DNA of 63,968 bases, filler included, from Catajapyx aquilonaris (Eukaryota): assembly GCA_000934665.2 (NCBI GenBank). It is 3 parts of 3 records of this genome, joined end to end, with 100 filler letters (N's around TTAATTAATTAA, not from the genome) between each part and the next. Parts side by side here need not be neighbours in the genome. Positions count along the whole stretch, not along the records: positions 21,462 to 42,837 come from KZ539472.1; 2 more parts are not named here. One strand, written 5' to 3'. Both the position numbers and the translations under genes were made by a program. Positions 2,288-62,549 of the stretch are shown here, one piece after another (position 1 is the stretch's first letter; every line of letters starts with the position of its first letter). The notes below the pieces were generated by a model. That model ran no database searches and was not told where the DNA came from. It saw only the letters and a program-made list of their open reading frames with translations.

Positions 2288-3363
2288 AAATGATCTAAAT
2301 GAATTTAATTTCACAGGTGTGACATTCAAAGCCCCTTTTCTCAAAACTGTGGGTTGACTCATTATTGCATAACACATTCTAATTTTGCCTGCGAACTTAT
2401 TTTATGACAGCCAACTTTTAGCTTCCTTAAAAAAAAATGATAATAGTAAAAGAATCTGGTCCGCTCAAAAACCAATTCGTCCCATATATCTTGTTAAGTA
2501 CCCCCATCGCTTTAATATTACAGCTGACAGCCGTTTAAATATGGCCAGTTCAACGCACCAAACTTCAGCAAGTTGGGATAATTCTGAATCGAGCTGGTTG
2601 GTGAGAAGAAAAAGAAATGTGAATTGCAGACTTTACAGCATCATAACGGTTAGGAATAATACGTTCAGGGCGAGAGTTAGTTTTGTGCATGAAAGGTGAT
2701 TATGAGCTGAAACGCTCGTATCTCCGAAATCCCAGTCAGCCACAAAAGGAAGCCTGTAGTTGGTGAGGGGAAGGAGAGGTGGGAGGTTGCTAGCAAGCAT
2801 ACTTTTAATGGCGAGCTAATAACTGCCCTAACGACTGGCTTTGCGATCCGTCCTCTCAGGCCAAACTTGCCAAACAACGTCCCTCAAAAGTTTCGGGAGT
2901 AGGTGGGTGGTTGCAACGAGAGGCGAATATATCCGCAGCTGCTACCCGGCAACCTATTGCAGGCTTTTACGGCTCCAACTTAACCGTCCTAGGCAACCCT
3001 TCACCTACCGAAAAACTAGACCATATCCTGGTAACACCACTGGCGCCAAATTTCAAACTTGCAAAAACACTGCATTCAATTTGCGCATAATGGATGGCGA
3101 ATCAGTACTTTTTTTTGCTGTTGGGGGGGGGGGGGNNNNNNNNNNNNNNNNNNNNNNNNNNNNNNNNNNNNNNNNNNNNNNNNNNNNNNNNNNNNNNCTG
3201 GGGTCGTGTAGGGAAGGTTGGGAGGGGGGGGGGGTGAGACGAGATGGGAATAATTTCTCCCTAGGGTGCGATGGGAAAAGAGGTCCGATAAGTCTTGGCG
3301 GATGTTCCCGTGAATCTTGTTCCGATTTGCCCATTTCTCTACCTATGCCGGTGCATCAAGCAG

Positions 3364-3705: not shown

Positions 3706-3895
3706 CAGTGACGTAGCCAGGATTCAAGTTCGGGGGGGGGGGGNNNNNNNNNNNNNNNNNNNNNNNNNNNNNNNNNNNNNNNNNNNNNNNNNNNNNNNNN
3801 NNNNNNNNNNNNNNNNNNNNNNNNNNNNNNNNNNNNNNNNNNNNNNNNNNNNNNNNNCAGACCCCCCCCCCCCCCCCCCCCCGGATACGTCACTG
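3706..3895. mobile_element. Short hAT-type MITE with poly-G/poly-C interior (contains an N gap)
   Basis: TIRs CAGTGACGTA / TACGTCACTG and a perfect 8-bp TSD cgtacggc (3698-3705, 3896-3903). Confidence 0.88.
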
Positions 3896-4770
3896 CGTAC
3901 GGCAAATATGCATTGTGGGCGAGTTTGTATCGGGGGAATTGGTCTGATACCATACTCGACATTGAAGTCGAAAAAAACGGACTTCAGGGGTACCGTGGTT
4001 TAGCCTATCTGCCAGGATAGATGGTATCGAGTATTCCGGAGCATGGCAAGAAGAGGATGTCGAATTTCCAATCGACGCAGAGGGCGCCGGATGGAAGTCC
4101 ATGTACATCAGCCGATGACTTTGATTAGTAGTTACCGTAGTTTCCCCTTGAGAAGCTGTAATCAAACGGGTCTCCAGACGCGCTTCGCCTTTTCATTAGT
4201 CCCAGAGCATGCAGTCGTATAAATGCCTGCTTCGCTCTGTATGCGACTCCGTCGGCCTCTCAGCCCATTTCCCACTAAGCCTAATAGACACTTAGAAGAT
4301 TCTCTCCCCGGATTACCAACTGTTTTCCGCTCGTAGCTAAGGGGGTACTAGAAAAAAAAATAGAGGCACTTCTTTATCCTATAGAGAGGCAAATTCGAAG
4401 GAATACTGGTCCCCAGGATTCGCTTTAATCAGGTTCAAGGTTATTTATATGCAAATCGTTCGGTACTTCCACGCTACTTAATGAACACTCAATATAAATT
4501 TCGTTCTGACTATAACTATTTTTTAAAATGGATATCCGGACAATGTTGCACTTCTAGCAGTGCAATGGGCGTTCGATTTAAATGTTGGCTGGACTTCAAG
4601 TAATATTAATCGTATTAATTGTTATATTAACTGTGGTGTTGGACCAGACAAGCAGTGTCAATGTAACAACTATCCTATTGTTTTTCCCCAGGAGAGCATT
4701 CTGTTGGCCAAAAACTCCACAACTGATTACAAAACCTGGAATGATGCTGCGACAAATCATCTCGTTTCAG

Positions 4771-4919
4771 AACTGCCATTACACGGGCCTCGAATATCTG
4801 GTAACTACTCCATTGAAAGCCCCCCACTCTACCACGTGGGTGACTTGGTCAACCTAAACTGCACGTCCGGAAGATCCATTCCAGCTGCCAATCTCACATG
4901 GTACATCAACGACCGTGAG
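4771..4919 (+). CDS. beat: Beat exon (start of Ig domain 2)
   Basis: Acceptor tttcag and donor gtaaaa at 4920. LPLHGPRISG...YHVGDLVNLNCTSGRSIPAANLTWYIND is typical of Beat Ig2. Confidence 0.92.
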
Positions 4920-4962
4920 GTAAAACACTTAACTGCCATGTGCATGAAATATATAATGCGAG

Positions 4963-4965
<3 letters not shown>

Positions 4966-21361: not shown

Positions 21362-21461
21362 NNNNNNNNNNNNNNNNNNNNNNNNNNNNNNNNNNNNNNN
21401 NNNNNTTAATTAATTAANNNNNNNNNNNNNNNNNNNNNNNNNNNNNNNNNNNNNNNNNNNN
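21362..21461. other. Artificial scaffold-joining spacer
   Basis: 44 N + TTAATTAATTAA (stops in all six frames) + 44 N = 100 nt. Confidence 0.95.
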
Positions 21462-24376: not shown

Positions 24377-25196
24377 CAGTAAAACTTCTATAAGTCGAAT
24401 CTGCATGGGACCGGAAAAAAACTTCGAGTTATAGAAGATTCGAGTTAGAGAAGTTTGGCTTTTGTAAAGCACATAACTCTGTAAGGAAGCCTACCTTTAT
24501 ATCCAGCGACGAAAGGTGTTCAAAACTTAAAAATAACTGCCACTATCACACTTACCATGTTCCTCGTTGTTTTGTTGTAAAAAAATCTCTGTTATGGACA
24601 TTTGCCTACTCTTAGATTCAAGGATTCAATCATTGTCACAATCGAGTCAAACACTTCTTTCGGTACGTCTGGTAGACATAGATCAGGAAATTGAGCCTTT
24701 CTGTACATGTGACCTACTGTCGACCCTTCGGCTTGGAAATGAGAAAATTTTCTGTGCTCGCCAACATGAACTTCGACTTAGGGAGACTGAAAATGCATTG
24801 ATATCCCATCATAAGGCCCTGCCAGCACTTCGAGTTATGGAGAACTTCGAGCAGTGGCGGATCTATGGGGGGGGTGATCGGGGTGATCACCCTCCCCCCC
24901 NNNNNNNNNNNNNNNNNNNNNNNNNNNNNNNNNNNNNNNNNNNNNNNNNNNNNNNNNNNNNNNNNNNNNNNNNNNNNNNNNNNNNNNNNNNNNNNNNNNN
25001 NNNCCCCCCCCCCAACAACGACGTCTAGATCCGCCACTGACTTCGAGTGATAGAAATTCGAGTTACGGAAGTTTATTTCCTATTATTTTACATTGTGACC
25101 AACCAAGCTCATCATTTTCTTCGACTTATAGAGAACTTCGACTTAGGGAAGTTCGACTTATCAATTATAGACTTATCTATTATAGAAGTTTTACTG
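24377..25196. mobile_element. pogo/Tigger-like MITE
   Basis: TA|CAGTAAAACTTCTATAA...TTATAGAAGTTTTACTG|TA. Confidence 0.85.
24852..25039. mobile_element. hAT-type MITE nested in the previous element
   Basis: TIRs CAGTGGCGGATCTA / TAGATCCGCCACTG and 8-bp TSD acttcgag. The right end of the same family is at positions ~10-22. Confidence 0.88.
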
Positions 25197-27840: not shown

Positions 27841-28390
27841 CCGTATTTACTCGCATACAAGACGCACTCCGGTTTTGAGGCGAAAAATTGTGGAAAATCG
27901 GTTGTTGACTCATATAAGACGCACCCAGATTGTTGCCGTAGTTTGGGAACTGGCCTCGAGCTGCCGGCAGCAACCTCGTGTGCAATGCATGTGCGTGTGG
28001 AATCCATTAAAATCCAGTAAAGGGGGGGGGGGGGGGGGGNTTAAAAGGGGGGGGGGGAGTGGAAAATGGGACAATGCTACGCATCTGAAACGTATAGGTA
28101 GCAAGGTCACACCGGAATTGTGCACGTGTGGGGACAGGGAGAGCATATCAATGGAAGTGAAGGAGAAACGCAGGTCGTACCGTGCCGATTTCAAGAGGAA
28201 AGTGATCAACTGTGCTGACAGGACATCAAACCGACAAGCTTAAATTTTTCAATAAACGATTTTCACGATTTCTCACGGGTTTCACCGGTTGTGCCCTGCC
28301 GTATAAGACGCACACGCGTATAAGACGCACCCTACTTTTTGAGCTACAAAAATCGGGAAAAAAGTGCGTCTTATATGCGAGTAAATACGG
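27841..28390 (+). mobile_element. pogo-family deletion derivative retaining the transposase N-terminus
   Basis: TA|CCGTATTTACTCGCATA...TATGCGAGTAAATACGG|TA. MEVKEKRRSYRADFKRKVINCADRTSNRQA resembles a Brinker-type DNA-binding domain. Confidence 0.88.
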
Positions 28391-34155: not shown

Positions 34156-34373
34156 TAAGTTCTCACTCAGTATCGCAGAGTAAGAACAGGGTCTTTCTTT
34201 TAGGTAGTTCAGAACAGAATTCTTCATCAAGAAGCAGCAATGTCCAGGGACTGAGATCACTCCAGACTTTTCACCAGAGAGGCACTGTCTCTGAAATGCT
34301 TGCTAGTCCTGCAAGTTTGGCTTCACTTTGCCTTGTTCATGGAAATCTGGAGAAAGTGGGACAGATCATCCAG
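34156..34373 (+). CDS. ZFYVE26: ZFYVE26 internal exon
   Basis: MLASPASLASLCLVHGNLEKVGQIIQ resembles vertebrate MFSPPESLLASCILRGNFAEAHQVL. Donor gtaact. Confidence 0.85.
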
Positions 34374-34406
34374 GTAACTATATTTTTTTATTATGTGAGG
34401 AAGTTG

Positions 34407-34865
34407 TTACATTAGCTGAAAATTTTGAAGCAGGCTATAGTAGATCTTCTTCTCTTCAGTGGAAGGATCGTAAGTCCTTACATTTCCTTCAGGCTGAGGC
34501 CAGAATCCTGGTTTGTTGTTTATGATCTTGTTTTGCATATCCAGCATCAGGGCCTTTTGTTTGCACCATAATGGAATGCAGTCATAGCAAAAGTCTTTAT
34601 AGTAGGATAGGATGAGCAGTGACACCACAACCAAAGGGAAGATCCAGACTATCAACACTATCCATATATTTCTTTGAGTATCGAAGGTATATGTGTAGCT
34701 CGTGAAGTCAGCCCAGACACACTTGATGGCATCTAGAGGGTTTGGCTCAGAACAGATATCTTTTCCTGGTTTAAAAAATGTTTCGTTAGGCCAGTTATAT
34801 GAACAGGAGCTAAGGTTAACTATGGAGTTAGCTGTTGTATGCATATAGACCAACTCTATAGTTAT
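34407..34865 (-). CDS. Nested antisense gene, last exon (Cys-containing juxtamembrane region, one TM helix, cytoplasmic tail)
   Basis: Open frame of ~152 codons with N-glycosylation sequons (NLS, NET), TM segment IWIVLIVWIFPLVVVSLLILSYY, a ~60-aa tail and stop at 34407. The exact acceptor is uncertain. Confidence 0.62.
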   Translation of the reverse strand: MTIELVYMHTTANSIVNLSSCSYNWPNETFFKPGKDICSEPNPLDAIKCVWADFTSYTYTFDTQRNIWIVLIVWIFPLVVVSLLILSYYKDFCYDCIPLWCKQKALMLDMQNKIINNKPGFWPQPEGNVRTYDPSTEEKKIYYSLLQNFQLM

Positions 34866-36518
34866 CTATACCTCATGTTCTTACAACTAACCCTTATTAT
34901 AGCATCTTGAATGGACATATTAAAAGGATCCCTTCCAAGAGCTATTTTGTTGCTTTGCACCATAATTTTTAAAGGAGACAGAGTGGAATTTTTGCCCGAC
35001 TACTAGTTACCTCTAACTAAGCAGTACCAGAGTGCCAACACTGGTACTTCTATGTTAGCAGTGTCTAGCAGTGGGACAAAAATTCAACCCATGGTACCTA
35101 ACAATAGCAGAAGCAAAAGTGAAAGTGCCTTTTTTCCTATTGGGTTTATGAGTTGTGAAAATCAGGCTTTGAAAGACTGAATTTGCCAATTACTTTATAT
35201 TTATACTCGCTCCGCGAGGCGGGGGGTTCCCCCCCTCCCCCCCTTCCCCGTGTCGGCGCGAATTGGTCCGGTCCTCAGCAGGTCCTCCTAGGTCTCCGTA
35301 ACTCTCTGAGGCCCGGTGCAAGTCCGCTGCACCCTTCTCCCACTCTCCGATGCGAACACAGCAAGAATTTTTACGCAAAAATTGGTCGGAGCGAGGTGGC
35401 ATCCGTTTACAGAACACCAGTGACATCACCACTAAAGGTGTGGAGTATCAGAATGCGCCCTAGCTGACGTATCGTGAAAAAGGCACCATGATGCAATAAC
35501 AGATGACTTAGTGACAGGGTTGAGTAGGGGAGGAGGATACGAGGGGCCGGGGGCAGTGGGAGGTTGTGGGTGGTGGAGGCGATCGCAGCGCTCGTCTATG
35601 GGCCGCGCGGGGCAACTATCCGAGGGTATTTGCTGATACACTTAATTTTTTATCTCGAAAATGGCTGGGAAATTCGCGATTATGAGGATTTTTGGAAACA
35701 GTAAACCGGGGGCAAGGAATCCAACGGTGTAAGTCCGAGGTCTCTGCGATACCGGGAAGTGCGAAATCTTTTCCATCCTATATCCTCCTCGGATTGGGGC
35801 TTTATATATACTTGACTTGATACTTCATATCCACTCTTTCCAAAGGGCCCAAGTACCAAAATTTCGAAAAACCATTTTATTGTGGATTCCTACTCTTGGA
35901 GTTGGCCTCACAGCCCTGGTGAAGATGAAGAGCCAAAGTCAATCAGAAGTGCCTCAAAATTGAATGTGACGATTTGCGGTCCATTGCCTACTACTGGACT
36001 TGGGCCCTTTGGCAACTGACTGGACATAAATCAGATTCTGATTGATGTTAATAATAATTAATCTAGGATGGAAATATCACTGATCACACCTTTCTTTGTA
36101 GTACTACTTTATGAATATGATGTGTTCAGATGGACAGGCTATACCACTGAAATTTGCAGCATGAAATGTTGGTGCAGGCGTTCACTTGCCAAAAGGCCCA
36201 AGTCCACTGATTTTTACATTCAATCAGCTCTGACCTATTTCTTTCTAGTAGATGAAGTTTATGCCACTAGGTATGTATAATGGTGCCCTAAACCGCAAAA
36301 CTCTGTATGGAGCAATTACGCATATACGCAGTTTTTAGTCTCTCCTGAAAAATTTCACCACGTAGACTTGGGCCCTTTGGCAAGTGACGTCTTCAATTGT
36401 CAAATGGTCACCGGAGGAAATTTGAAGGTGGAGGAATTTTTATTTCAATTTATACAGGTCAATGGTAGATCACACCCAATTTTTTGAGCCATGTAAGCTA
36501 TTATGCTCTAAAACTGAC

Positions 36519-36664
36519 ATTTAATGAAATTGATGATGAGGTAGAGCTGATTGCAAAATGTGGCAACCCTTGAAGTGGGGTATTACAGTGGGCTAACATG
36601 ACTGTGCTCATGCCATATAATTGATTAATATGTGGCTGTAAAAATTGGGCATGATGTACCTTTG
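36519..36664 (-). CDS. Nested antisense gene, candidate internal exon
   Basis: Acceptor ttttacag and donor gtcagt. Open frame KVHHAQFLQPHINQLYGMSTVMLAHCNTPLQGLPHFAISSTSSSISLN. Confidence 0.4.
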
Positions 36665-36721
36665 CTGTAAAACTTGAAATCAAAATTTTTTCATCTTCCA
36701 ATTTCCTCATGTGGCCATTAA

Positions 36722-37225
36722 GGGCCGGTTGCACCAGTCACGGTATATGGAAAACGGCGGGTTTTCACTCCGGTATACCGCGAGAAGTGTTGCGCCCTCT
36801 ACGGTTGTTCTAAAACGGCCCGTTCTCCCTCCCATTTACCGCCGGATCCATCTACCCGCCGATCCTGCAGCACAAGTTGCTTATACCGCGGGTTTATGGT
36901 GTTGTCATGGTGCTCGGGATTTCGGGTACTGTGTGACACCAGGTGGCAACCCTGCCACATGGTTGCCGTAGATACGAGACGACCAGCCATACTTCTATGA
37001 CGTCACGGATTGCGTCACGGGTGCTATGATCCAATCAAGGCTCTCTAAAATTTTTGCCCGCTTACGTCTCTCATGAGCCAGCGTACTACCGAAAACGCAG
37101 CGTTTATCTGGACCGGTGCAACGCTATGGAATAAACCCGCGGTTTTTCATGGAATATACCGTGTACCCGCGGTGCAGGGTTCTTCCATATACCGTTCCAT
37201 ATACCGCGACTGGTGCAACCGGCCC
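36722..37225. mobile_element. Harbinger-like MITE
   Basis: TIRs GGGCCGGTTGCACCAGTC / GACTGGTGCAACCGGCCC with TAA/TTA flanks. Confidence 0.78.
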
Positions 37226-37621
37226 TTACAGTGCAAATTATGAATCTTAAACCCTGATTTTCACAACTCGTAAACCTGATCGGAAAAAATTGAGTTTCAC
37301 TTTTGATTATGATGTTGTTAGGTACAATCTCCACTAAAAGGTGTGGTGCACAGTGACAAAATGAATATAAAAAGGGATCCTGTATAGGTCAACAAAGAAG
37401 AAAATATCCGTGACAATTTTATGCCTCAGAAATAAATATGACAATTAGACCTGTCCATTTCTGCTTTTAGCCTGGACATGAAGATCTGATTTTTTCACTA
37501 CTTGTCTTAGCCACTTCCTTCAAGCCACTTTAATGGGCTCCCTTCCCCTGAAGGCATATGTGGACAGGCATGATGATCATAGTCAATACTGCACTGCTGC
37601 AAAACATTATACCCAGGTATA

Positions 37622-39562
37622 CTTGCCCAACACCAGTGAAGTTCACCTAGCACGAAAATCACCTGCATGTCGATGTTACAAATACGAATTACTTGAGAAT
37701 GAATCATGTTTTAATCGCACAACTTATATGCTAATGAGCCTCATGGAAGAGCAATGTTGGGGCGAGATATCAATGCATTTGTCAGTGGAAGAAGAAGAAT
37801 AGGACAGTATTTATTTAGCTCGCCAGGGGCAATGGTGTTCGCCCAGAGTGCTAAACGCGCCACAAAGTTCGCCTACGAGTAGGTGGGATCGCCATGGGCA
37901 GCAATGACGGCCTCCACACAACACCACATGTGTTGAATTAGCTCTGGCACTCGGCTGGAGTGATGGTGTTCCAAACCTCCCGTAGTTTGGCCCTCAAGGG
38001 ATGCCTTGGTGCAAAGATGATTCCTCTAAAGTACCTTCTTCATGATTTTCCAGTCTGTCTCAATCGGATTGAGGTCCAGGCTGCTCGATGGTCACGTAAA
38101 ATGTCAATCCCCTTGTCTGCCAGCCACTTGCTTCTGCTGTTTTGGTAAGATGCAAAGTCCTGTTTAAATATTGCATTGATATTCGGATGTAAGGTTGCTG
38201 TTGAGGGCGCACACAGCGGATGGTCTCTCAAAATCTCCTGAAACATGCTTGTATCGATGGTGCCATTGATGCCGGGAAAGTTTCCAAGGCCAACACTACC
38301 CATGCATCCCCACACCATAATGCTGTGTGCATGTTTGACGGTTCTAGTGAGACATTGGGATGGTACGCCTCTTCTTTGTTTGCAGTACTCGATTATGGAT
38401 GTCCCTGTACTGACTAATTCATCGTGAAGCATGATTAATACCACATCTGATGTGCCCAATGCTTCCATCCCTTCTCCCAAGCAAGTCTTTTTCCTGTTCC
38501 AGTGCCTTTAAGGGTGGTTTCTTCTTGGCCTATTGTCAAGAGGGCAGGTCGTGATTTCATGAATTCCCCGTTAGTCTTTGAGAAGTTGCACGTATAAGTT
38601 CAACTTCATGTCATGGATGCAGAGTCGACAGGTTGTTGTATGGACCACCTTTTGGGTCACATCTGACCATTTTGAAATTGATGGTCGCTGCTCCTTTTGC
38701 AGATATTGCGACACATTTTTCTCATCGCTCGGTTTTTCCTTGCTGCTGTTGCCTGGTGACGTCCATAATAAGGTTTTTCTGAATGATTCTTGTAGTTTTG
38801 TTACTTCATGCGATGCCACTAGCCACCAAAGAGTTCTGCTATATTATATATACACCTAGAAGAGGTACTCGGCCTGAAATGTGAGGCAGGCAACAATGCA
38901 GGCAACAATATGACCTCCAACAAGATGGCGGACGCCTGACATTATTTGAACTAATTGTCGCCCAGTTGTCATTATTGGTTGTTGTCCCAGTTGCTAGACA
39001 ACTGTTAGAACAACAATATGACCTCCAACAAGATGGCGGCTGCCTCAGCTTGTCTAATGGAAAAGGATAGGGAGTACCTCCTCTAGGTATTATATTATAT
39101 AATAGCAGAACTCTTTGCTAGCCACTGACTATGGCACGTGCCCTTCTTGAGCAACCACATAAGCAGACTTTCCTTCTTCAGAGCTCTTCCATTTCACCTT
39201 GTGTACCTCTGGAGGAATGGGCTTACCACCTCCTGTGATTGTTATTTTCAGACACCGAGTGCACTTTTTTTTTCATCTGGCACAACCGTTAAAGTCTGTA
39301 TTTAACAGTGGGCGAACTTTGTGGCGAGTTTAGCGCTCTGGGCGAACTCCATTGCCCCTGGCGCGCTAAATAAATACTGTCCTATTCTTCTTCTTCCACT
39401 GACAAATGCATTGATATCTTGCCCCAACATTGCTCTTCCATGAGGCTCATTAGCATATAAGTTGTGCGATTAAAACATGATTCATTCTCAAGTAATTCGT
39501 ATTTGTAACATCGACATGCAGGTGATTTTCGTGCTAGGCGAACTTCACTGGTGTTGGGAAAG
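37622..39562 (-). mobile_element. Near-full-length Tc1-like transposon with ~250-bp TIRs and a decayed DD34E transposase
   Basis: TA|CTTGCCCAACACCAGTGAAG...CTTCACTGGTGTTGGGAAAG|TA. The minus-strand fragment TVKHAHSIMVWGCM..IFKQDFASY is followed by a frameshifted SxDLNPIE motif. Confidence 0.92.
38827..39117. mobile_element. P-element-like MITE inserted in the Tc1 transposase
   Basis: TIRs CAAAGAGTTCTGCTAT / ATAGCAGAACTCTTTG and 8-bp TSD ctagccac. Confidence 0.82.
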
Positions 39563-40065
39563 TACTATAAAGTCACTTCGCTTTCAAGGTAATTTAAACT
39601 TGCTTCTTATAGAAGTGAGCTTTCTGAGCATCAAGCTATTGAAGAACTGCTGGAGCCTATGTTTTGTTATATTGCTTGCTCTTTAATACCAAAATTAATT
39701 ATTTCTTGCATGTTTTTGCCTGTTGCTTACTCCACCTGTCCCACTAACAAGTGGGATTGAGGAATATGCAATATACAGGGCACAGTCTTTAAGTCCCTGC
39801 AGTTTAAAGATGAGTGTGTGAATAAGTTTTGAATTGTTCACTTCAGCAACCAGCTTAAAGAAGCAATGATCACAATTGAAAGTAGCCCTGATTGCTGCTT
39901 TCAAGAGAGGATGCTTCTCCATAAACCCATTGCTGAGAAAAACAATTCATAACTTTCATACTGTTATCGTGAACTAGGACTTGCGATACTACCCTTTTTA
40001 TTGATCTTTAGAAGATTAGTTGATGTCAGCAACTCCAAAGGATGTCAAAATGAATTAGAACCTAC

Positions 40066-40240
40066 CACTGCTAGAAGTTTCTTCGATTTCATCTTCGTCA
40101 GCCATTTGATGTTTTTCTTGAGTACTATAGTATTCATCTTTGAATTCATCATATTCATAATTGGATCCATCTTTCCCTTTAGGAGGTTTTAATGGCGTCC
40201 AGTCTATCTTCGGCACTGTCTGTTTGGTAGTATTGGCATT
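40066..40240 (-). CDS. Nested antisense gene, exon 2 (acidic region)
   Basis: Follows a 64-nt gt..ttctag intron. Reads NANTTKQTVPKIDWTPLKPPKGKDGSNYEYDEFKDEYYSTQEKHQMADEDEIEETSSS; donor gtaggt. Confidence 0.62.
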
Positions 40241-40304
40241 CTAGAATGATAAGTTTTGAAAGAGTTATAGAGTGATATTTTTTCTCATTAATATGGTACC
40301 TTAC

Positions 40305-40409
40305 CTGCAGATTTGACTTCTTTGTAAGATGCACAGACAGAGGTCTACCTTGTAAAGCCATGAAGGACTCAATAAGCAGGCATAGGACCCATACAAATTT
40401 TGCTGTCAT
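40305..40409 (-). CDS. Nested antisense gene, first coding exon (signal peptide)
   Basis: ATG at 40409. MTAKFVWVLCLLIESFMALQGRP looks like a signal peptide. Strong donor CAG|gtaagg, phase 0. Confidence 0.65.
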
Positions 40410-40479
40410 TTTATGCTTGCCTGTTGACTGTTGTTTCTATGGTTATTGTCCATGATTGGAAATATGACTTTTCTTCCAG

Positions 40480-40608
40480 ATCTTCGAGATGCAAGATTCC
40501 ATACTAGCCAAGGAAGTGAAATTTATCCAAGAATTTCAGAAGTGTGTGGAACAAATGAATACTTTGGCATCTAATACAAGTTCCACCAAACTTTCACATA
40601 GTCTTCAA
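40480..40608 (+). CDS. ZFYVE26: ZFYVE26 internal exon
   Basis: IFEMQDSILAKEVKFIQEFQKCVEQM continues the vertebrate alignment (TFNLKSSPSSGELMFMERYQEVIQEL). Acceptor ttccag, donor gtatgt. Confidence 0.8.
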
Positions 40609-40699
40609 GTATGTACATCAGATGCAATTCTTGTAGTGAAAAGAAAAGGTAAATGAACATTGTTGGGTGTAGAGTTCACTGTGTGTGTTTTTTTTGCAG

Positions 40700-42584: not shown

Positions 42585-42837
42585 AAATACTCGGCATTAA
42601 AAACAGCAATAGTCAGTTTTGGAAAATTTGAAACCTATCCCATTCACTTATACAGGGTGATCAAACTTTTTTGTCGTTTTAGTTATTGACAAATTCGGCA
42701 TAAGCTGCTTATATTGTAGCCCGTTACCTGGCAACCCCGTCCGGCGGGCCAATTCAAACATCAGCCCATGGAGAGCGCTTCCATTGTTGCCACTGTTTAC
42801 AAATCGAGTGAGTGACGCGGATGCCCCAGCGACGGGT

Positions 42838-42937
42838 NNNNNNNNNNNNNNNNNNNNNNNNNNNNNNNNNNNNNNNNNNNNTTAATTAATTAANNNNNNN
42901 NNNNNNNNNNNNNNNNNNNNNNNNNNNNNNNNNNNNN
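42838..42937. other. Artificial scaffold-joining spacer
   Basis: Same 44 N + TTAATTAATTAA + 44 N layout as at 21362. Confidence 0.95.
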
Positions 42938-53910: not shown

Positions 53911-54098
53911 CTCAAGCATGAATGTTGTAGAAGGAAGTGTAGAAGGAAGAGAGAAAAATGTCGATTTTTTATGTCCATGCATGATGATGCCTTTTTTGGG
54001 GGGAGGGGGAGTAAGTTAACAGTCATTCAAAAATATTTCCCCTTAACGTCAATGTTGCCAACATAGATATAAGTGGTAACTATTAATGATCTTTGCAG

Positions 54099-54434
54099 GC
54101 CTCGGTTCGCATGAAAACTCTCAAAGTGTTAAACCAGTTCCTGCCATACATCCCTGACACCTTAGTTCTGGTGGATGAAAAGTTCATCGATGATCTGAAA
54201 GAGCACCATTGCAAGACGATGGTAATGTGCATGTGTGGAGATCAAGAAGACGTGCTTGATGTTTGGTGCTTCCTGGTGCGCTTGCTAGGGACACAATTAC
54301 ATCATGGTGCTTTCCTTATCAACCCTATTTTGGAAGTGGTGGAGAAGGGGTTTAAAGGTGGGAGTCCAGCGATCAGGGTAAAGACTTTTGGTGCCTGGCA
54401 GGAACTCACCAACAACTTTGCACTTGATCGTGAG
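54099..54434 (+). CDS. Rif1: Rif1 exon (Rif1_N domain)
   Basis: WCFLVRLLGTQLHHGAFLINPILEVVEKGFK...FGAWQELTNNFAL matches vertebrate WPLFVKLLGRTLHRSGSFINSLLQLEELGFR...FIAWKSLIDNFAL. Confidence 0.93.
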
Positions 54435-54527
54435 GTGAGTTACCAGACAGTTATAATCATAACTTGTTTGAAATGTGGAATTTTTTATCATGTAGAGCAT
54501 TTCTAACGGTAACCAATCTTATTTCAG

Positions 54528-55052
54528 GTGATTCATAACTCAAAGCGAATGAGGCTTCTCATGGCCCCAATGATGGCCAACAATGCCAAAACTGAAGACA
54601 TAGCTATCAAAAAATTCCAGACCTGGTGGAACCTCATTGTGAAGCTAAAGCAACCCAACTTTGACACTGTAGTCCTTCCTTTCCTGAAGTACTCCTTCTT
54701 TAGTAATCCTTTAACAAGTCCAAACTCTTTCACTCTTTGCCAAAAATATTCCTCCACCCTAGGTCCTTTCTGTGCCGATGCCCTCGCCCAGCTTTTGTGC
54801 CATTTATTACCCTCCTACATTGAGTTGGAGTCCCAGGGGTACAGCCCACGTGTTGACCAGTTGCAGGCACCATTGTCAGATGATAGTGGGAAGTTTCTCA
54901 AGTACCGGAAGGAATTTATTGCTGCTATAAAAATGGTCATGCAAGTGCTTGTTCCTTCAAATGATGAACATGCAGCAAGGGTCTTGGTCATTTGGAAGTA
55001 CCTGCTGTTGCACATCAGAGTAGCATTTGAGGTCCAGCAACTATCCTTGGAG
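54528..55052 (+). CDS. Rif1: Rif1 exon
   Basis: VIHNSKRMRLLMAPM...KTEDIAIKKFQTWWNLI matches vertebrate SAKRLKLLMQPL..TETLALTKLEVWWYL. Donor gtttgt. Confidence 0.88.
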
Positions 55053-56572
55053 GTTTGTTCCCTACTCCACCTCTTTTATTGTCTTGAAGTGGGTATGGCG
55101 CCACATAGATTAGACGTGCAACTCAAAAAGCGAGATGTAGATCTGACAATTTTCAAGGGTCAGTTGGAAAAGAAGTTTCGTGATCCTACAGTTTTGACAC
55201 CATGCGAGAGACAGGATCAAGATGAGCATGGGCAGGTGTGTCAATCCTTCTGTTACTTTATAGGACAGGTAGGCACCGCCGTGCAACTTATTCACAGGTG
55301 CTGCTGCCATCGGATGAGAGTGCCGAGTGCCGAGTGCTGAGCTGAGCATGCCCGCCCACATTCTTTCAGGTGAAGTCATGGTAGACGGAAGTGTGTTGGT
55401 CACATGGACTAAGGCAGAAGTGAGGGGCAGTTGTTCCCTTCAAGTGGTTGACATTTGACATATGGCATACGAAATTCATTGCCAGCTAGCCCTTTCAGCC
55501 ACAAATTAAGGTTTTCAAGAAAAATTACTTTGTTTTTTAGGTTATGGAGCTCAGACACTTATGAGAAATCATTTATGGACTTTTTCTCCACCTCAACAGA
55601 TGGTCATGCTACATAAAGGAGGGGTGGTTTGACCACCATACCACCGTGGCCATAGCGGGAAATAAAATGAGAAAAGGTGGTTTCCCTGAGTAACCACTTC
55701 GGCTGAAAGGGCTAGGGGAGGTGTATGGTCTGTATGTCGCGTCTGAGCAAATGTTTTGGTAATATGGTGCCAGCAATTCCGCAATGGGCTAGCAAGAGTG
55801 AAGGACAACCAGAGACCTGGACGACTGGCTACGGCAATTACTACAGTGTCCTCACTTCTGCCGTATTCCGTGTGACCAATACATGTCTGTCTGCCATGAC
55901 TTCCCTTGGCGGAATGTGGGCGGGCACGCTTGGCTCGCCACTTGGTCTCATCCAACGGATGCCACGCCTAAGCCTAAGTTTCAAGATGGCACCTACCCAT
56001 TCTACAGAGTACCAGATGGATTGACATACCTGCTCACGGTCATCTTTACCTTGCCTGTTGCATGACATCAAAATTGTAGCATCGCGAAACTTATTTTCTG
56101 ACTACTTTCATAGATCAACAATCCCAGACATTTAAATCTTGTGTTGAGCATCTTGGGAGTGGACTCTGTCACACCCCCTTGATTTTGAGTAACCGCGCCA
56201 AGATGGCATCATGGAATTTCGAGTATCTTTTTCCTGAGAGTCTATGCATTTAATTTGGAGGCATTGGAGGCAGTCCCCCTTACAAATCAGTTGTAAGGGC
56301 ATAGGATGACCTTAAACAGAATGGGGATTTTGACACTGACTAACTTAGCCAGGGATCATCAGTTCAATTCAATGCAGTGTGCATGTCAGAAAGAGGGTAG
56401 GGTGCAAGAAAACACCACAGTGTGCCCATGCAATGCATCCAAATATAGCCTTTTCTGCCTTAGAAATCTTAGAAATTAATGTCATCTTGGTTGGAGAATG
56501 GGTGTCATTTTATTGTGTCAGTTGTATTAGGATCTCTTATCAGGTCCTACTGCAGTTGGCAATTTTACTCTT

Positions 56573-56860
56573 AGGAAAGAGTAGGCCTTACTGGCGTGCG
56601 GAGGGTGGTAGGGTGAGTGGTGGCTGGGGGCAGCTTGGCTGTGTCGCAAAGGCAAGGATGTAAGGATTTATTTTTTGGATTTTGGAAGTATGCTGTACCA
56701 ACCTAACCTAACCAAGCCTAACCTTCCTTCCTTGCGGATACAGGCCTACCTTCAGCCAATACACGCCTATCCTTTATCCTTGCCTTTGCGACACAGCCCG
56801 CTGCCCCCACTGACTACTACCCTCCCACCTCCCGCACGCCAGTGAGGCTAACTCTATCCT
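56573..56860. mobile_element. Palindromic MITE with a central (AACCT)n tract
   Basis: Arms cctTactggcgtgcgg..ggctgtgtcgcaaaggcaaggat and atccttgcctttgcgacacagcc..ccgcacgccagtgagg. Confidence 0.7.
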
Positions 56861-56944
56861 TCTCTTCCTGTGGTCAGGATAACCTGCACAATACTGCAAT
56901 ACATATTTGAACTATTGTATGTGATGTGAAACTGATATTTTCAG

Positions 56945-57481
56945 GTGAAGGAGTTGGTGACAGATTTGCTGAAATTGCTGGAGCATTTGGCATGTAATGT
57001 CCGAATAGAACAGTCAAAAGCGCAGCATGTCCTCAAATTAACCCATGAGGCAGCAGTGGGAAACTTTGCTCTCCCTGATGATGTCATGCTTACTACTGTT
57101 TCTATGCCAGCCAAGACTCCTGTGATGTTTTTTGTCTCGCTGCTTCTCCATCGTACACTGATTCCGTTGTATGGGATTGATGAAAAATACTACTCTGTGT
57201 TTCGGCCACTAGTTGACCTGGGTGTGAGGCAACATGAACGCCCCCTTATATTCCACTCAGAAGCACTAGCTAAGCTGGAAACAGTGCAGTCAGATATACA
57301 GAGTATTGATCTGCAAATCCTGTGGGACATGTGGAGATGTCTGGCAACTGCTATGGCGGAAAGGCTCAAGGAGTCGCTATCAAATGATGAGAACCAACTC
57401 AAGGAGATGACTAACTTTGCAAATGTGTATGATACCCTGGTCTTCCCAATCAAGTACCTGCTGGATAGGGAATTGAGAGAG
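56945..57481 (+). CDS. Rif1: Rif1 exon
   Basis: Acceptor ttttcag, donor gttagt, phase 0/0. Contains TPVMFFVSLLL...LWDMWRCLA...NFANVYDTLVFPI. Confidence 0.88.
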
Positions 57482-57569
57482 GTTAGTAGTTTCCAATATT
57501 CAAACAATAACATAAAGAATTTGCAACAGGCCTATGCATAAGACATGCAATGTACTTTTGATGGATATT

Positions 57570-57980
57570 CAGGGCGTAAATTAATTCAACTGACAAACTT
57601 GTAGGGGTAAACAAGGGGACCAAGACAAATGTATTTCACATAGGAAACCGTGTCCGGAAACGCCATCTAGAGGGGGGTTCATAGACAAGGAACGGGTTCA
57701 CTCAGATGCGTCAGGCGGGCAGACCGTTTAGGCTCGCTGATAGTAAACAATGGCTCAATTTGCCATAACCTGGCAACAACAGAGTCGTTTAGTATCTGCG
57801 TGCTACCTAGCAACTAAACGGTCCCCTCTCTAGCGCCGCCTGCCTGACGCATTTCAGTCCGTGTATATGGACCCCTTTTAGATGACGTTTCCGGACATGG
57901 TTTCCTATGTGAAAAAATGATTGTCTTGGTCCCCTCTACTACCCCTATAAGTTTGTCTGAGTAAATTCATTTACTCCCTG
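57570..57980. mobile_element. Tc1-type foldback MITE
   Basis: CAGGGcGTAAAT..GACAAACTTgTAGGG and CCCTATAAGTTTGTC..ATTTACTCCCTG|TA. Confidence 0.75.
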
Positions 57981-57984
57981 TATA

Positions 57985-58872
57985 CAAGGGTTGTTCAAGG
58001 TTGACCGAGACTTTTGTGCATAAAAAGTCAATTAATTACTGGAGCACAATGAAATTTTCGGAGGATGTAAGGTAATTCTTCTTTAATATCCCATACAAGG
58101 CATGATGTATTTGGCGCATGCTCGCAGCAGTTGCGGTGAACATGGGTGTAAGCAGTGTGTCTGTAGCTGTGGGACAGTGGTTCATAATTAAATGTTGTGT
58201 GAAGGCGAACGTTAAACCACCTGAAAATATGAGAATATTGCAAGCACAGCATGGGGAACAAACTATGTCACTATCAAGAGTGTAGGAAGGTGTCAACAGT
58301 TTGGCCAAGGGCGAGAGCTGGTGACAAATTAACAACAAAGACACGTTTGTCTAATTGAAGTCATGCAGACAATCAAAGTGTTATCCATGTGGATTTTTTT
58401 GGAGAAAGGGGTCAAGATTAATGCCCAGTATTACTGTGCACTGACGAAGGGTACCGTACAAACCACTGTTTGCAAGAAAAGGCCTGGAATGTTGTCTGGA
58501 AATGACAATCCCCAACCCTCACGAACAATTTGACAGCAGAAACTCCGCCCAAAATGCAATGGGAGGTCTTGCCCCATACCCCTCACAGTCTGGACTCAGC
58601 CCCCAGTGATTTTATTTCGGTTAGGCCCCTTGGTAGGGAAGAAATTTAAGACAGATGAACCACTGAAGAAAGACCATGTCCTGCAGTGGCTGCGACACCA
58701 GCCCAGATCTTTTTACGCCAAAGGAATCAGGGAGCTGCCACAACAAAGGCATTGGTGCCTCGACGCCCACTGGGAATACTGTACCTTGAAAAACCGACAT
58801 GGTCTGGTACTTGTCAGACTTTTCATTTTATCTGTAGAAATAAAAGTCTTGGTTAACCTTGAACGACCCTTG
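57985..58872 (+). mobile_element. Mariner transposon remnant
   Basis: TA|CAAGGGTtGTTCAAGGTT...AACCTTGAACGACCCTTG|TA. Decayed WEVLPHTPHSLDSAPSDF and QPRSFYAKGIRELP..WCLD are mariner C-terminal motifs. Confidence 0.88.
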
Positions 58873-59560
58873 TAACAGAACCTGCCCAACATGGACATGG
58901 AAAGGATTTTTGTCTCCCTCCACAGAGAAACCCTGTTCATACCAGAAATCAAAATTTTGACATGCTCTCCTGCCAGTCATTGGCTGGTACGAAAATAGAA
59001 GCTCCAGTTGAACCTCCAGCTAGGCCTCTGAGTAAGCCTTTTGTGGACTTTCAGACACCATGTGTCTCATAATATATTGCTGGCGTTGTGATCAGGCTCA
59101 TGACCTTTAAGACAGATTGGCGAGGAAGGGGCACAATTTTTGGTTGGGAAAAGGAGAGACTGTTTGTTTGTGAAGCAGAAGATTGTGACTCATGAAGTGC
59201 TCGTTTTCCTACCTACCTCTTTCCCACTCTTTCTTACCGTTAAAAAAAAAAATCTGTAAAGAATTTGCAGAAAATATGGTGTCAAATATAGTGGAAACCC
59301 ATGTGATTACAGTATGAGCAGGTTTCACTGCACTGAGGAAATTCTAGCTCGCTACCTGGACCATGAATTTTTCCGTGATAGGCAATATTGTCCTGTACTC
59401 TCTTCCGAGTCCAATACAGGCAGGATTTACTATATTATAACTTCTGCAGCAAAAAGGCTTCATGATACAATTTCAAACTGACAATTCATTTGGAATTTTG
59501 ACATTCAAAAGCTTAAACAGTTAATAGGTTTTGTTTATCTGATTGCACCATTACTTTCAG

Positions 59561-60028
59561 ACTCAAATGGTGCAGCTGAAAGATGCATGGGAGAAGCTGT
59601 GCAAACCAATTGTGGCTATAGCCCACTCCAAGCTGATGCTGGATGGACCCCAAGTGACAGAACTGGTGTACCGCCTTATGAAGAGACATATGGGGTGCTT
59701 GGCTATTGAGGAGAGTCCTCTGATGATGTTCCTCCATCTGGCATGCGTCCTAAATGATCTGTCATCAAAATCAAAAAGAAGCAAGATGAAGTACAAGCAA
59801 GGCAAAGGTGAAGGGTTAGCTCTGAGTCAGTGCTTGGCCTTTGTAGTGAATGCCTCCACTAAGCTGATGCCACGCAGTGAACAGTTGGCAGGAGTGGCTA
59901 TGACTCTGACTGAGTCGTTGATGGTGCAAGCCAACCCAGAGCAGATGGAGTACCTAATTGAAAATGTCGTTGGGCAAATCATAATTACCTTCAAGCATAC
60001 ACCCATGAGTCCTTCACATGCGGCACGG
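59561..60028 (+). CDS. Rif1: Rif1 exon
   Basis: Acceptor ctttcag, donor gtaagt, phase 0/0. Reads TQMVQLKDAWEKLCK.... Confidence 0.8.
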
Positions 60029-60215
60029 GTAAGTAATTTCAGTGGCAAATAGCTGTATACAGATTCATAGAGATGTGCATATTGCTCCCATTTATTGTCA
60101 TAGTTATAGTACCGATACTTGTATGTCTTGATCTAGACGTCTAGAGGTCATGGAAATTAGTTTTTCAGTACAAGAGCAATTTTGCCTAATATTTGCTGCA
60201 TGTTTCAGAGGTTAG

Positions 60216-60380
60216 TTTACAGCAATATATACTTGTACAGACATCTTGTGGACCCTTATGTCCACTTGCTCTTATTGCCTCACCTTCAATAAAAACGAGA
60301 TCAAGGCATACGAAGATGGTGTTTTACCTTTTTTCAAAAGTATTGCCAGTGATAATTTACACATGTATCTCACTGAGACA
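60216..60380 (+). CDS. Rif1: Possible additional Rif1 exon
   Basis: Open frame FTAIYTCTDILWTLMSTC...YLTET with donor gtaggg. The phase-0 acceptor (gttag) is weak, so the boundaries are uncertain. Confidence 0.3.
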
Positions 60381-60546
60381 GTAGGGGTACTATGGCCATC
60401 TCATAGAAGCCTTTGGGTTGTTCTTGGAACCACATCTGAACCCCCTCCTTCACTTCATCGTCTGTTTGGAATCAGCATCCTTGCAAAGCTCTCTTCAGTT
60501 CACCAGAAATGTGAAAGTCACAGGGTGACAGGTTAATACTGTAGAG

Positions 60547-61484
60547 CAGGGCTTCCCAAACTTTTTTCGCCGCGTACCCCTTTTCAAATTTGCCAAGACA
60601 GTTTGTACCCCCATTCTCATCCTACCAGTAGTAATATTGTGAGCACTAATTACCAATTAGTGTGATGGGTCTGCTTGCTTGCTTCCTTGCGCACAAGTGG
60701 TCAATGTTTGGGACAAGTGACGTCAATTTGAGTAGTCTCAAGTCGTTTTTCACAGTCAGTCGATTCCGGTATTTTGTTTTGATGGATGTTGATGATGAAA
60801 AGCCAGCTTCACATAAATAGGTTGTGGCAAATCGAATGGGGGTACAAACTGTCTGGAGTCTTAGTGTTTCAAAGCACAGCCTGCCATGCCAGCATAATCG
60901 TCAATTCTTTCCGCGCCCAAAAGGTGACGAGGGTTTTGTGTCAAAATTCCTGGTTGAAATTTCCATCTGTTGAAATTTCGATAATTTTTTCTTGGTCCTG
61001 TACTGGCATGTTTGGAATTGGCAATAAAATATCAAACGGGTTCCTTATCCTGGATAAGGAACCCGTCCAATTCATTGACGTGTCCATTTCGGGAAAATTA
61101 TTCCTAAACTGCTGCGGCAGTTGGAGCACTCATCACTAACATCTGGGAATAAGTGCGCAGTTGTTTTGCACCTGGGAGATGCGTCTAATTTGCAGTTCTA
61201 CGGTCCTGCATATTGACCCCATATGGAAGTAATTTAGGCTTCTCATTTCCAGTCGCACCCCCATCAAACCCTCCCTCCCATCTCTCCTCCCGATATTTCC
61301 ACATGTTTTCCACTTTAATATCGTTCATATCCTTAGATCCCAGGTTTGTTTTTCCCACAAATTTTCTTTCATTTTTCCCCACAAATGTAGAGAACGGACG
61401 CCATTGCACGAAATCTTTCGCGTACCCCCAAAATTGTGTTCACGTACCCCCAGGGGTACGGGTACCCCAGTTTGAAAACCGCTG
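60547..61484 (-). mobile_element. hAT (Buster/Charlie-type) deletion derivative
   Basis: TIRs CAGGGcTTCCCAAAC / GTTTGAAAACCGCTG, perfect 8-bp TSD ctgtagag, and minus-strand remnant IRNPFD...QEKIIEISTD..F..LVTFW. Confidence 0.85.
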
Positions 61485-62037
61485 CTGTAGAGGGTGCGGG
61501 GTTGGCTGAGATCTTCCCACTTCAATTTCTGCACAAGATCTTTCATGAAATTTGCTGTATGGGGGCGGACAATATCATGGTATTCTCGTACTATACTTTG
61601 ATGGTCATACGGTGGATTGTGTCCTTTTTGATCACATGATGTGACAACTGCTGCTTTAGCTGCATTTGCACATGCACATCATTTTACTTGAGGTTAGAAG
61701 GTTATTCATGCCAATGGGCATTATTGCCTGTCCCATAGGTTTTACGCAATAAATTTGGCCTTCTAAAAAATTGACAGCACCTTATAATTATGGGGAGAGT
61801 GGAATTTGGTATAAAAATTCTGCCCAGTATCTGAAAAGTGATGTTCGCTTGCTTAATATTAACTGTAGAGAACTGCATGAGAGCTGAAATTAATAGTAAA
61901 AGCGTAACAGAAATAAGATTGCTGAAAATCTTATTTTGGAAATGTATGTGAAGGTGTGTATGAGTGGTTCATACTACCCGTCATAAAGAGACAGGAATTG
62001 AAACTTATTTTAAATGCGACATTTATGCGTTTTCCAG

Positions 62038-62525
62038 GTGGAGTCGTTTTGCCGTATGGTATGCATTAAACTGGGAGCCTACTTTTCGACTCGCCGCAAC
62101 CGGGATTCTCTCCAGCAAGTGACTCCTTTGCTGCAAGCAGGTTTGACCCATCAGTCCAAGAAAGTACGTCAGATGGTACTCCAACTCTGGAGTGTTGCAT
62201 TTGAGGGACAAGTGGACCTTGTGACTATCCCTGCAGACCTTTTGAAGCTTCTGGAGTTAGGCAGGGCCCATACATCTGAGGGACCAAAGAAGTACAGGGC
62301 ATCCCGATCAACAACCCAACTTGCTCTTTCCAAATCTGCCACCCCCTTGGAAGATTTGGATTCACAGGAATTTGTGCCTATCTCAACAACTCCTGATAAT
62401 GATAAATTAGCACTTACTCGCCACCAGAAGGAAGCAAGGAAGTTGCGAAGCTTTATTCCTGCTCTTTACAATGACTGCACACAGGACACGCAAAACAGCC
62501 TGCCAGACACAGAAGATTCACTAAG
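62038..62525 (+). CDS. Rif1: Rif1 exon (end of HEAT region); gene continues beyond the window
   Basis: LQQVTPLLQAGLTHQSKKVRQMVLQLWSVAF and DSQEFVPI..LTRHQKE..IPALYND match conserved RIF1 motifs. Donor gtaggc. Confidence 0.92.
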
Positions 62526-62549
62526 GTAGGCATTCATATGTGGACTTTC

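Follow-up and report, generated by a model that had tools for sequence, protein, structure and literature searches.

We analysed a stretch of 63,968 nt of genomic DNA from Catajapyx aquilonaris (assembly GCA_000934665.2; hereafter the window) and find that one 6.1-kb intron of a plus-strand host gene probably contains an intact three-exon protein-coding gene on the minus strand. As judged from sequence and profile comparisons, the protein encoded by this nested gene is a distant homologue of an unnamed insect family whose members are annotated as 'hypothetical protein'.

The host reading frame on the plus strand ends at nucleotide 34373 with the donor ATCCAG/GTAACT and resumes at 40480 after the acceptor ttttcttccag/. 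Both splice sites coincide with codon boundaries, so that the join between the two host exons is in phase 0, in agreement with the first-pass annotation of this DNA, and the interval 34374-40479 (~6.1 kb) behaves as a single host intron. It is flanked by the following exons:

34208..34373, plus strand: upstream host exon; 3′ end firm (donor GTAACT), 5′ boundary ambiguous, with several AGs at 34202-34212.
40480..40648, plus strand: downstream host exon; acceptor as given above, donor GT at 40649-40650.

The host may be spastizin (ZFYVE26), as the first-pass annotation has it; tool searches gave no confirmation. A phmmer comparison of the host open reading frames (ORFs) with PDB sequences returned no spastizin row, just the unrelated entries 4h59_A (E 1.9) and 8uao_A (E 1.5), and a protein database search, which reached proteins of 253-2000 amino acids (aa) only, yielded no match to the host among 904 candidates. 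Pfam gave no match on the host ORFs, an atlas look-up of the host returned one unrelated cluster (score 0.75), and no FYVE domain was found among 70 plus-strand ORFs, 65 of which lie downstream of the intron. The lack of a downstream FYVE domain is explained by the end of the contig that carries the locus (21462-42837) at 42837; this contig would hold only a minor part of the host gene. Past the downstream host exon, the interval from 40673 to the contig end at 42837 contains few convincing plus-strand coding frames.

On the opposite strand, the host intron contains the following elements of the nested gene, listed in the direction of transcription:

40305..40409, minus strand: exon 1, coding part; ATG at 40409, 35 codons including a hydrophobic leader, donor CAG/GTAAGG (40305/40304), phase 0.
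40241..40304, minus strand: intron 1; 64 nt, GTAAGG...TCTAG, acceptor tcattctag.
40066..40240, minus strand: exon 2; 175 nt, acidic, Tyr-rich ectodomain segment with one N-x-T sequon, phase 1, donor G/GTAGGT.
34766..40065, minus strand: intron 2 in the shortest model; use of an upstream acceptor would shift its far end to 34820, 34832 or 34856; mostly inverted-repeat-bounded elements.
34766..34855, minus strand: possible 5′ extension of the terminal exon; open frame, three further phase-compatible acceptors, two sequons, coding status undecided.
34407..34765, minus strand: terminal exon, minimal form; acceptor ttttttaaaccag/GA, two-Cys loop, transmembrane (TM) helix, three juxtamembrane Cys, cytosolic tail, TAA.

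A distance of 70 nt separates the ATG at 40409 from the host exon, and an in-frame stop precedes this ATG by nine codons. At the far end, the terminal ORF (34410-34865, minus strand) comprises 152 codons and closes with TAA at 34407-34409, a stop that lies 33 nt from the host donor. The encoded segment has two sequons and six cysteines, one strongly hydrophobic helix (Kyte-Doolittle (KD) mean over 19 residues 3.02) and a tail of 64 residues that contains Tyr. The first-pass annotation had placed here an ATG exon with a signal peptide and a strong donor, a 64-nt intron, an acidic second exon and a terminal exon of about 150 codons with sequons, cysteines, a TM helix, a Tyr-containing tail and a stop at 34407. 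All of its coordinates for these four elements are correct as read from the sequence.

Exon 2 leaves over one base that fits four AG acceptors, with exon starts at 34855, 34831, 34819 and 34765, and each choice produces an uninterrupted frame (242, 234, 230 and 212 aa, respectively). All four models encode an N-terminal hydrophobic segment, an acidic ectodomain (isoelectric point (pI) 4.7) and one TM segment (KD mean 3.02). With the acceptor at 34765, which is the best consensus fit, the ectodomain has two cysteines, like that of the beetle relatives described below. The 34766-34855 extension aligns to the insect proteins by eye (MAFFT), yet 58 and 113 of 1000 shuffles reach its score, and its predicted local distance difference test score (pLDDT) in AlphaFold2 is <50.

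Relatives of the nested protein were sought by scoring the terminal exon (119 aa) against 1,835,955,588 representative proteins at a cut-off of E ≤ 0.001, which two proteins, P0006 and P0007, reached. The alignment with P0007 (258 aa, E 6.1e-5) places query residues 11-116 on residues 148-255 and reaches within three residues of both C-termini; the pairwise BLASTP comparison gives E 1e-8 at 26% identity. P0006 (2338 aa, receptor-type phosphatase-like) was rejected as spurious, a 24-residue piece of the tail being matched to an eight-fold repeat. A search with P0007 returned 11 proteins and a profile search seven, three of them new, for a total of 14 different proteins. The named members are PNF35304.1 from Cryptotermes secundus (B7P43_G04805), KAF5271759.1 from Lamprigera yunnana, KAF2881692.1 from Ignelater luminosus and XP_072390544.1 from Diabrotica undecimpunctata, all labelled 'hypothetical' or 'uncharacterized'; the remaining ones stem from metagenome and Logan contigs. 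The gene, which the first-pass annotation had been unable to assign to a family, is thus assignable to an unnamed and uncharacterised insect family by both profile and pairwise hits.

In the members of this family, a leader precedes a long acidic region and a Tyr-Asp-Tyr motif that is invariant and has Tyr-Tyr or similar behind it; sequons and one TM helix come next, then a cysteine-rich block, likewise invariant, and finally a tail that is conserved. Several full-length members run uninterrupted on contigs of 1.3-2.4 kb, while the models of two insect genes, on contigs of 22.9 and 5.3 kb, stop directly behind the TM helix and begin with shared non-family residues. We read these breaks as intron borders, and the contrast suggests that the short contigs are spliced mRNAs. 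We found no paper on the locus tags or accessions of the members, nor on a gene nested in ZFYVE26, and scans of metagenome contigs for insect loci (synteny) gave no confirmed relative.

The window protein has its parts in the same order as the insect proteins (leader, acidic Tyr motif, sequons, two-Cys loop, TM helix, juxtamembrane Cys, tail). Its two-Cys loop ends in K-C-[IVL]-W, as in the beetle proteins and P0007, and its tail has N-x-P-G, P-[ST] and the final L in common with the family; the tail columns N117, G120, P134, E138 and L145 are invariant in 13 of 13 sequences, the window protein included.

Both ends of the gene were compared with the family by hidden Markov models (HMMs) run against all 2780 six-frame ORFs of at least 15 aa in the window. 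The first HMM was built from 11 termite-type and one beetle sequences, and the broader HMM adds three beetle-type sequences. The terminal exon ranks first with either model (E 3.5e-6 for the first and 5.2e-9 for the broader HMM), and exon 2 ranks second with the first HMM (E 0.33) and fourth with the broader one (E 1.1); composition-matched shuffles reach the exon 2 scores in 1 and 9 of 1000 cases. Profile-profile comparison (hhalign) with 11 members assigns the terminal exon a probability of 83.8% (E 7.9e-6) and exon 2 an E value of 0.01. With the first HMM, exon 2 aligns at the Tyr motif, which is conserved more strongly than any other motif of the family ectodomain, and this match lies upstream, along the profile, of that of the terminal exon. 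The exon 2 sequence N-Y-E-Y-D-E-F-K-D-E-Y-Y aligns to the family motif Y-D-Y-[ED]-S-L...[YF], in which (alignment A3) D135, Y136 and L139 are invariant and Y134 is nearly so, the window protein having F in place of the invariant L.

Since both ends match the family in order, we conclude that the two are very probably parts of a single homologous gene. The first-pass annotation had assumed a single type I membrane-protein gene, and the common strand, the family order, the in-phase join and the profile matches all speak for it. Alternatively, the locus could consist of two separate units, with exons 1 and 2 encoding a short secreted acidic peptide and the 3′ ORF forming part of another transcript. 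If the donor of exon 2 is not used, the frame stops three codons further on (...GRF-stop; ORF 40055-40240); in addition, 5.3 kb of mostly repeat-derived DNA separate the two parts and no reads join them. The insect proteins, however, carry the acidic Tyr motif and the TM-tail portion in this order within one protein, the junction of exon 2 with the terminal exon is in phase, and the terminal exon by itself lacks a leader that would permit type I insertion. We consider two separate units distinctly improbable.

About two thirds of the host intron consist of elements bounded by inverted repeats, all within the second intron of the nested gene:

37620..39564, no strand assigned: transposon-like insertion; 1.9 kb, terminal inverted repeats of 257 nt that are 97% complementary, TA at either end.
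35091..37328, no strand assigned: second inverted-repeat stretch; 96-nt arms, 79%.
36703-37244, within 35091-37328, no strand assigned: inner inverted-repeat pair; 50-nt arms, 84%.

The 1.9-kb element holds a decayed internal ORF of 155 codons (38043-38507), in which Pfam detects no transposase domain; to class the element as Tc1/mariner is our own reading. Its 257-nt terminal inverted repeats are unusually long.

The repeats also bear on the three middle exons that had been proposed around 39560-39975, 37510-37600 and 36519-36664. The first of these sits just past the repeat arm ending at 39564, the second (ORF 37507-37710) runs into the 257-nt repeat arm starting at 37620, and the third (ORF 36501-36737) runs into the repeat arm 36703-36752. 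None of them matches the family profile among the 2780 ORFs. The join of exon 2 to the terminal exon being in phase, an open frame requires no middle exon, and the three-exon model is the simplest; we therefore do not retain the middle exons.

In an intron so rich in repeats, the reading frames might have arisen by chance or derive from transposons, and the transposon-like element does contain an ORF of similar length, the 155-codon frame described above. The candidate exons, in contrast, sit outside the inverted-repeat-bounded elements, no second copy of any part of the intron is present in the window, and the match to the insect proteins occurs in the correct order with E 5.2e-9. Chance or transposon-derived frames are accordingly the least credible of the explanations considered here, with hardly any weight left to them.

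Several observations count against an intact member of this family. In the multiple alignment, the window protein is 17-23% identical to the family members, the search of 1.84 billion representative proteins found no match above ~28% identity, and part of the family match is the TM helix. The hhalign probability of the terminal exon lies below 95%, and with the broader HMM a poly-isoleucine ORF and one unrelated ORF outrank exon 2. Exon 1 resembles the family no more than expected by chance (338 and 202 of 1000 shuffles reach its score; hhalign is blank); this is what one would expect of a leader peptide. After the leader, P-L-S-V-H-L stands at the place of the insect I-W-P-P-S-Y-K-V, by eye only, with a score within the range of shuffles. 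The acceptor of the last exon is ambiguous among four sites, and intron positions appear to differ from the two insect genomic models, since the nested gene has no intron right after the TM helix. The block W-C..G.C-C-C..C.F-C.P, invariant in 11 insects, is mostly missing: the window protein is without its W, first C and G and keeps three cysteines (columns C93 and C101 plus one). For this reason we term it a divergent homologue rather than a typical member.

To the same side of the balance belong the searches for function and expression. Pfam supports no function of the nested protein and gives only sub-threshold TM-type rows, Pox_EPC_I2-L1 at 22.1 vs 23.4 bits, with Sigma_reg_N and WVELL as further rows below cut-off. 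Foldseek, suggested as a check in the first-pass annotation, found no match in the PDB at E ≤ 0.001 (best E 0.3, TM score ~0.2), and the wide VIA-align comparison reached at best Z 5.2, with generic helical hairpins. A search of sequencing runs with the terminal exon listed no RNA dataset.

These points raise the question of a decaying or silent copy, that is, a formerly functional family member that is now unexpressed or unconstrained and whose frames remain open by luck. The loss of most of the cysteine block, the strong divergence, the uptake of at least two insertions by the second intron and the lack of expression support would all be expected of such a copy. A decaying gene is harder to reconcile with three open exons free of frameshifts and with the intact ATG, both donors, the acceptors and AATAAA; moreover, the invariant tail positions are retained, and the insertions are confined to the intron and spare the exons. 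We therefore regard a silent copy as unlikely, albeit as an explanation to be taken seriously, and an intact gene as the probable one.

Further differences from the insect family concern length. The insect proteins comprise 280-340 aa, compared with 212-242 aa for the window protein (40-130 residues shorter), and they contain a long N-terminal acidic part after the leader that the window protein does not have.

Two further elements define how closely the transcript of the nested gene might approach the host exons:

34392-34387, minus strand: AATAAA hexamer, 15 nt after the stop and within the initial 20 nt of the host intron; putative poly(A) signal.
40406..40453, minus strand: upstream ATG; starts a frame of 15 codons, the TGA of which overlaps with the main ATG.

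From the position of the AATAAA, the 3′ end of the nested gene would fall at about the host exon border, and we infer that a 3′ overlap with the host exon, if any, would amount to 0 to ~17 nt. The coding sequences of nested gene and host do not overlap. The 15-codon upstream frame is relevant only if transcription starts upstream of 40453.

Hydropathy and AlphaFold2 predict a type I single-pass topology, with an N-terminal 19-mer of KD 1.78, one KD peak of 3.02 and a sequon at residue 38 on the N-terminal side of the TM helix. For the window ORF, modelled with the family alignment, AlphaFold2 yields a mean pLDDT of 66.6, a short helix over the Cys loop and a TM helix at 61-89; the tail is modelled as a helix (99-116), a hairpin (121-131) and a second helix (136-151) at pLDDT ~75-90. 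The beetle protein is predicted with the same order of tail elements and a mostly low-confidence ectodomain. Because the window and beetle alignments share sequences, this structural agreement is not independent.

The following mode of action would be compatible with these predictions. The hydrophobic leader would be cleaved as a signal peptide, and the acidic ectodomain (~100 residues, pI 4.7) would face outwards and carry N-glycan sequons. Tyr clusters among acidic residues are candidate sulfation sites for tyrosylprotein sulfotransferase, and the Tyr/acidic cluster of the ectodomain is such a candidate site of tyrosine sulfation. Next to the membrane, two cysteines may close a short loop, followed by the one membrane-spanning helix; the cysteines just inside the membrane are palmitoylation candidates, and the cytosolic tail (~60 residues) is predicted to fold into helix, beta-hairpin and helix. 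Conservation between the window protein and the insect proteins is concentrated in the loop, the TM helix and the tail, so that the conserved activity is most likely to be sought in what the tail binds within the cell. Our best guess is that the nested protein acts as a trafficked surface or endomembrane adaptor or receptor. An atlas look-up of an insect member reached scores of at most 0.84 and provides the generic single-pass proteins Equatorin, TMEM154, AJAP1 and TMEM119 as leads only.

Apart from this locus, the window contains two identical linkers (44 N, TTAATTAATTAA, 44 N) at 21362-21461 and 42838-42937, by which at least three contigs are joined artificially. The host gene and the RIF1-like exons on the last contig consequently need not be neighbours. 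The latter form a run of long ORFs at 54090-62526 on the plus strand, of which 54090-54503 matches Pfam Rif1_N (E 1.1e-7, 31.6 vs 23 bits), and probably represent the N-terminal part of a RIF1 orthologue. On the first contig, exon-like ORFs at 90-374 and 4527-4964 (plus strand) match immunoglobulin (Ig) V-set and Ig_2/C2-set domains at or below the Pfam cut-offs, which suggests a gene of the Ig superfamily. Runs of N at 3136-3197, 3744-3857 and 24901-25003 and single Ns at 28040, 29605 and 30581 have long poly-G/poly-C flanks and look like uncalled or masked homopolymer stretches rather than scaffold gaps.

If the three-exon model holds, it adds to the catalogue of this genome a gene that is probably missing from it and extends an uncharacterised single-pass family beyond the beetles and termites in which it has so far been recorded. 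It would further mark the parts that survive deep divergence, namely the loop, the TM helix and the tail with its predicted fold, and would give initial functional work on the family something concrete to aim at.

Among known membrane proteins, the FXYD ion-transport regulators (PF02038) bear a possible resemblance: they too are small type I proteins with a single membrane span, and their ectodomain carries an aromatic-x-Tyr-Asp motif. The FXYD motif stands immediately before the membrane helix, whereas the motif of the window protein lies ~60 residues from the helix and in another exon; for neither exon does Pfam give an FXYD match at E ≤ 1.

We regard the nesting itself as most likely passive, an arrangement often met with in arthropods; the second intron of the nested gene would later have been inflated by transposon insertions. 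Nesting being ordinary in arthropods, the arrangement gains interest only if the same genes are paired in distant species. One could imagine that the pairing is old and functional, the membrane protein having been kept in the spastizin intron across arthropods as a cargo or membrane partner of the AP-5/SPG11/spastizin sorting machinery of late endosomes, with its tail as the docking site and the two genes mutually regulated via their abutting ends; we hold this to be highly doubtful. According to Lee and Chang (2013, PMC3814207), nearly 10% of Drosophila melanogaster genes are found in nested structures and nested genes evolve fast, which fits the divergence of the window protein. In that work, opposite-strand nested genes of Drosophila comprise a whole gene with its own introns inside one intron, as is the case here. 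The Drosophila pairs' coding sequences and their untranslated regions are described there as non-overlapping (PMC3814207), whereas in Catajapyx the nested coding sequence extends to within 33 and 70 nt of the host exons, so that its untranslated regions may touch them.

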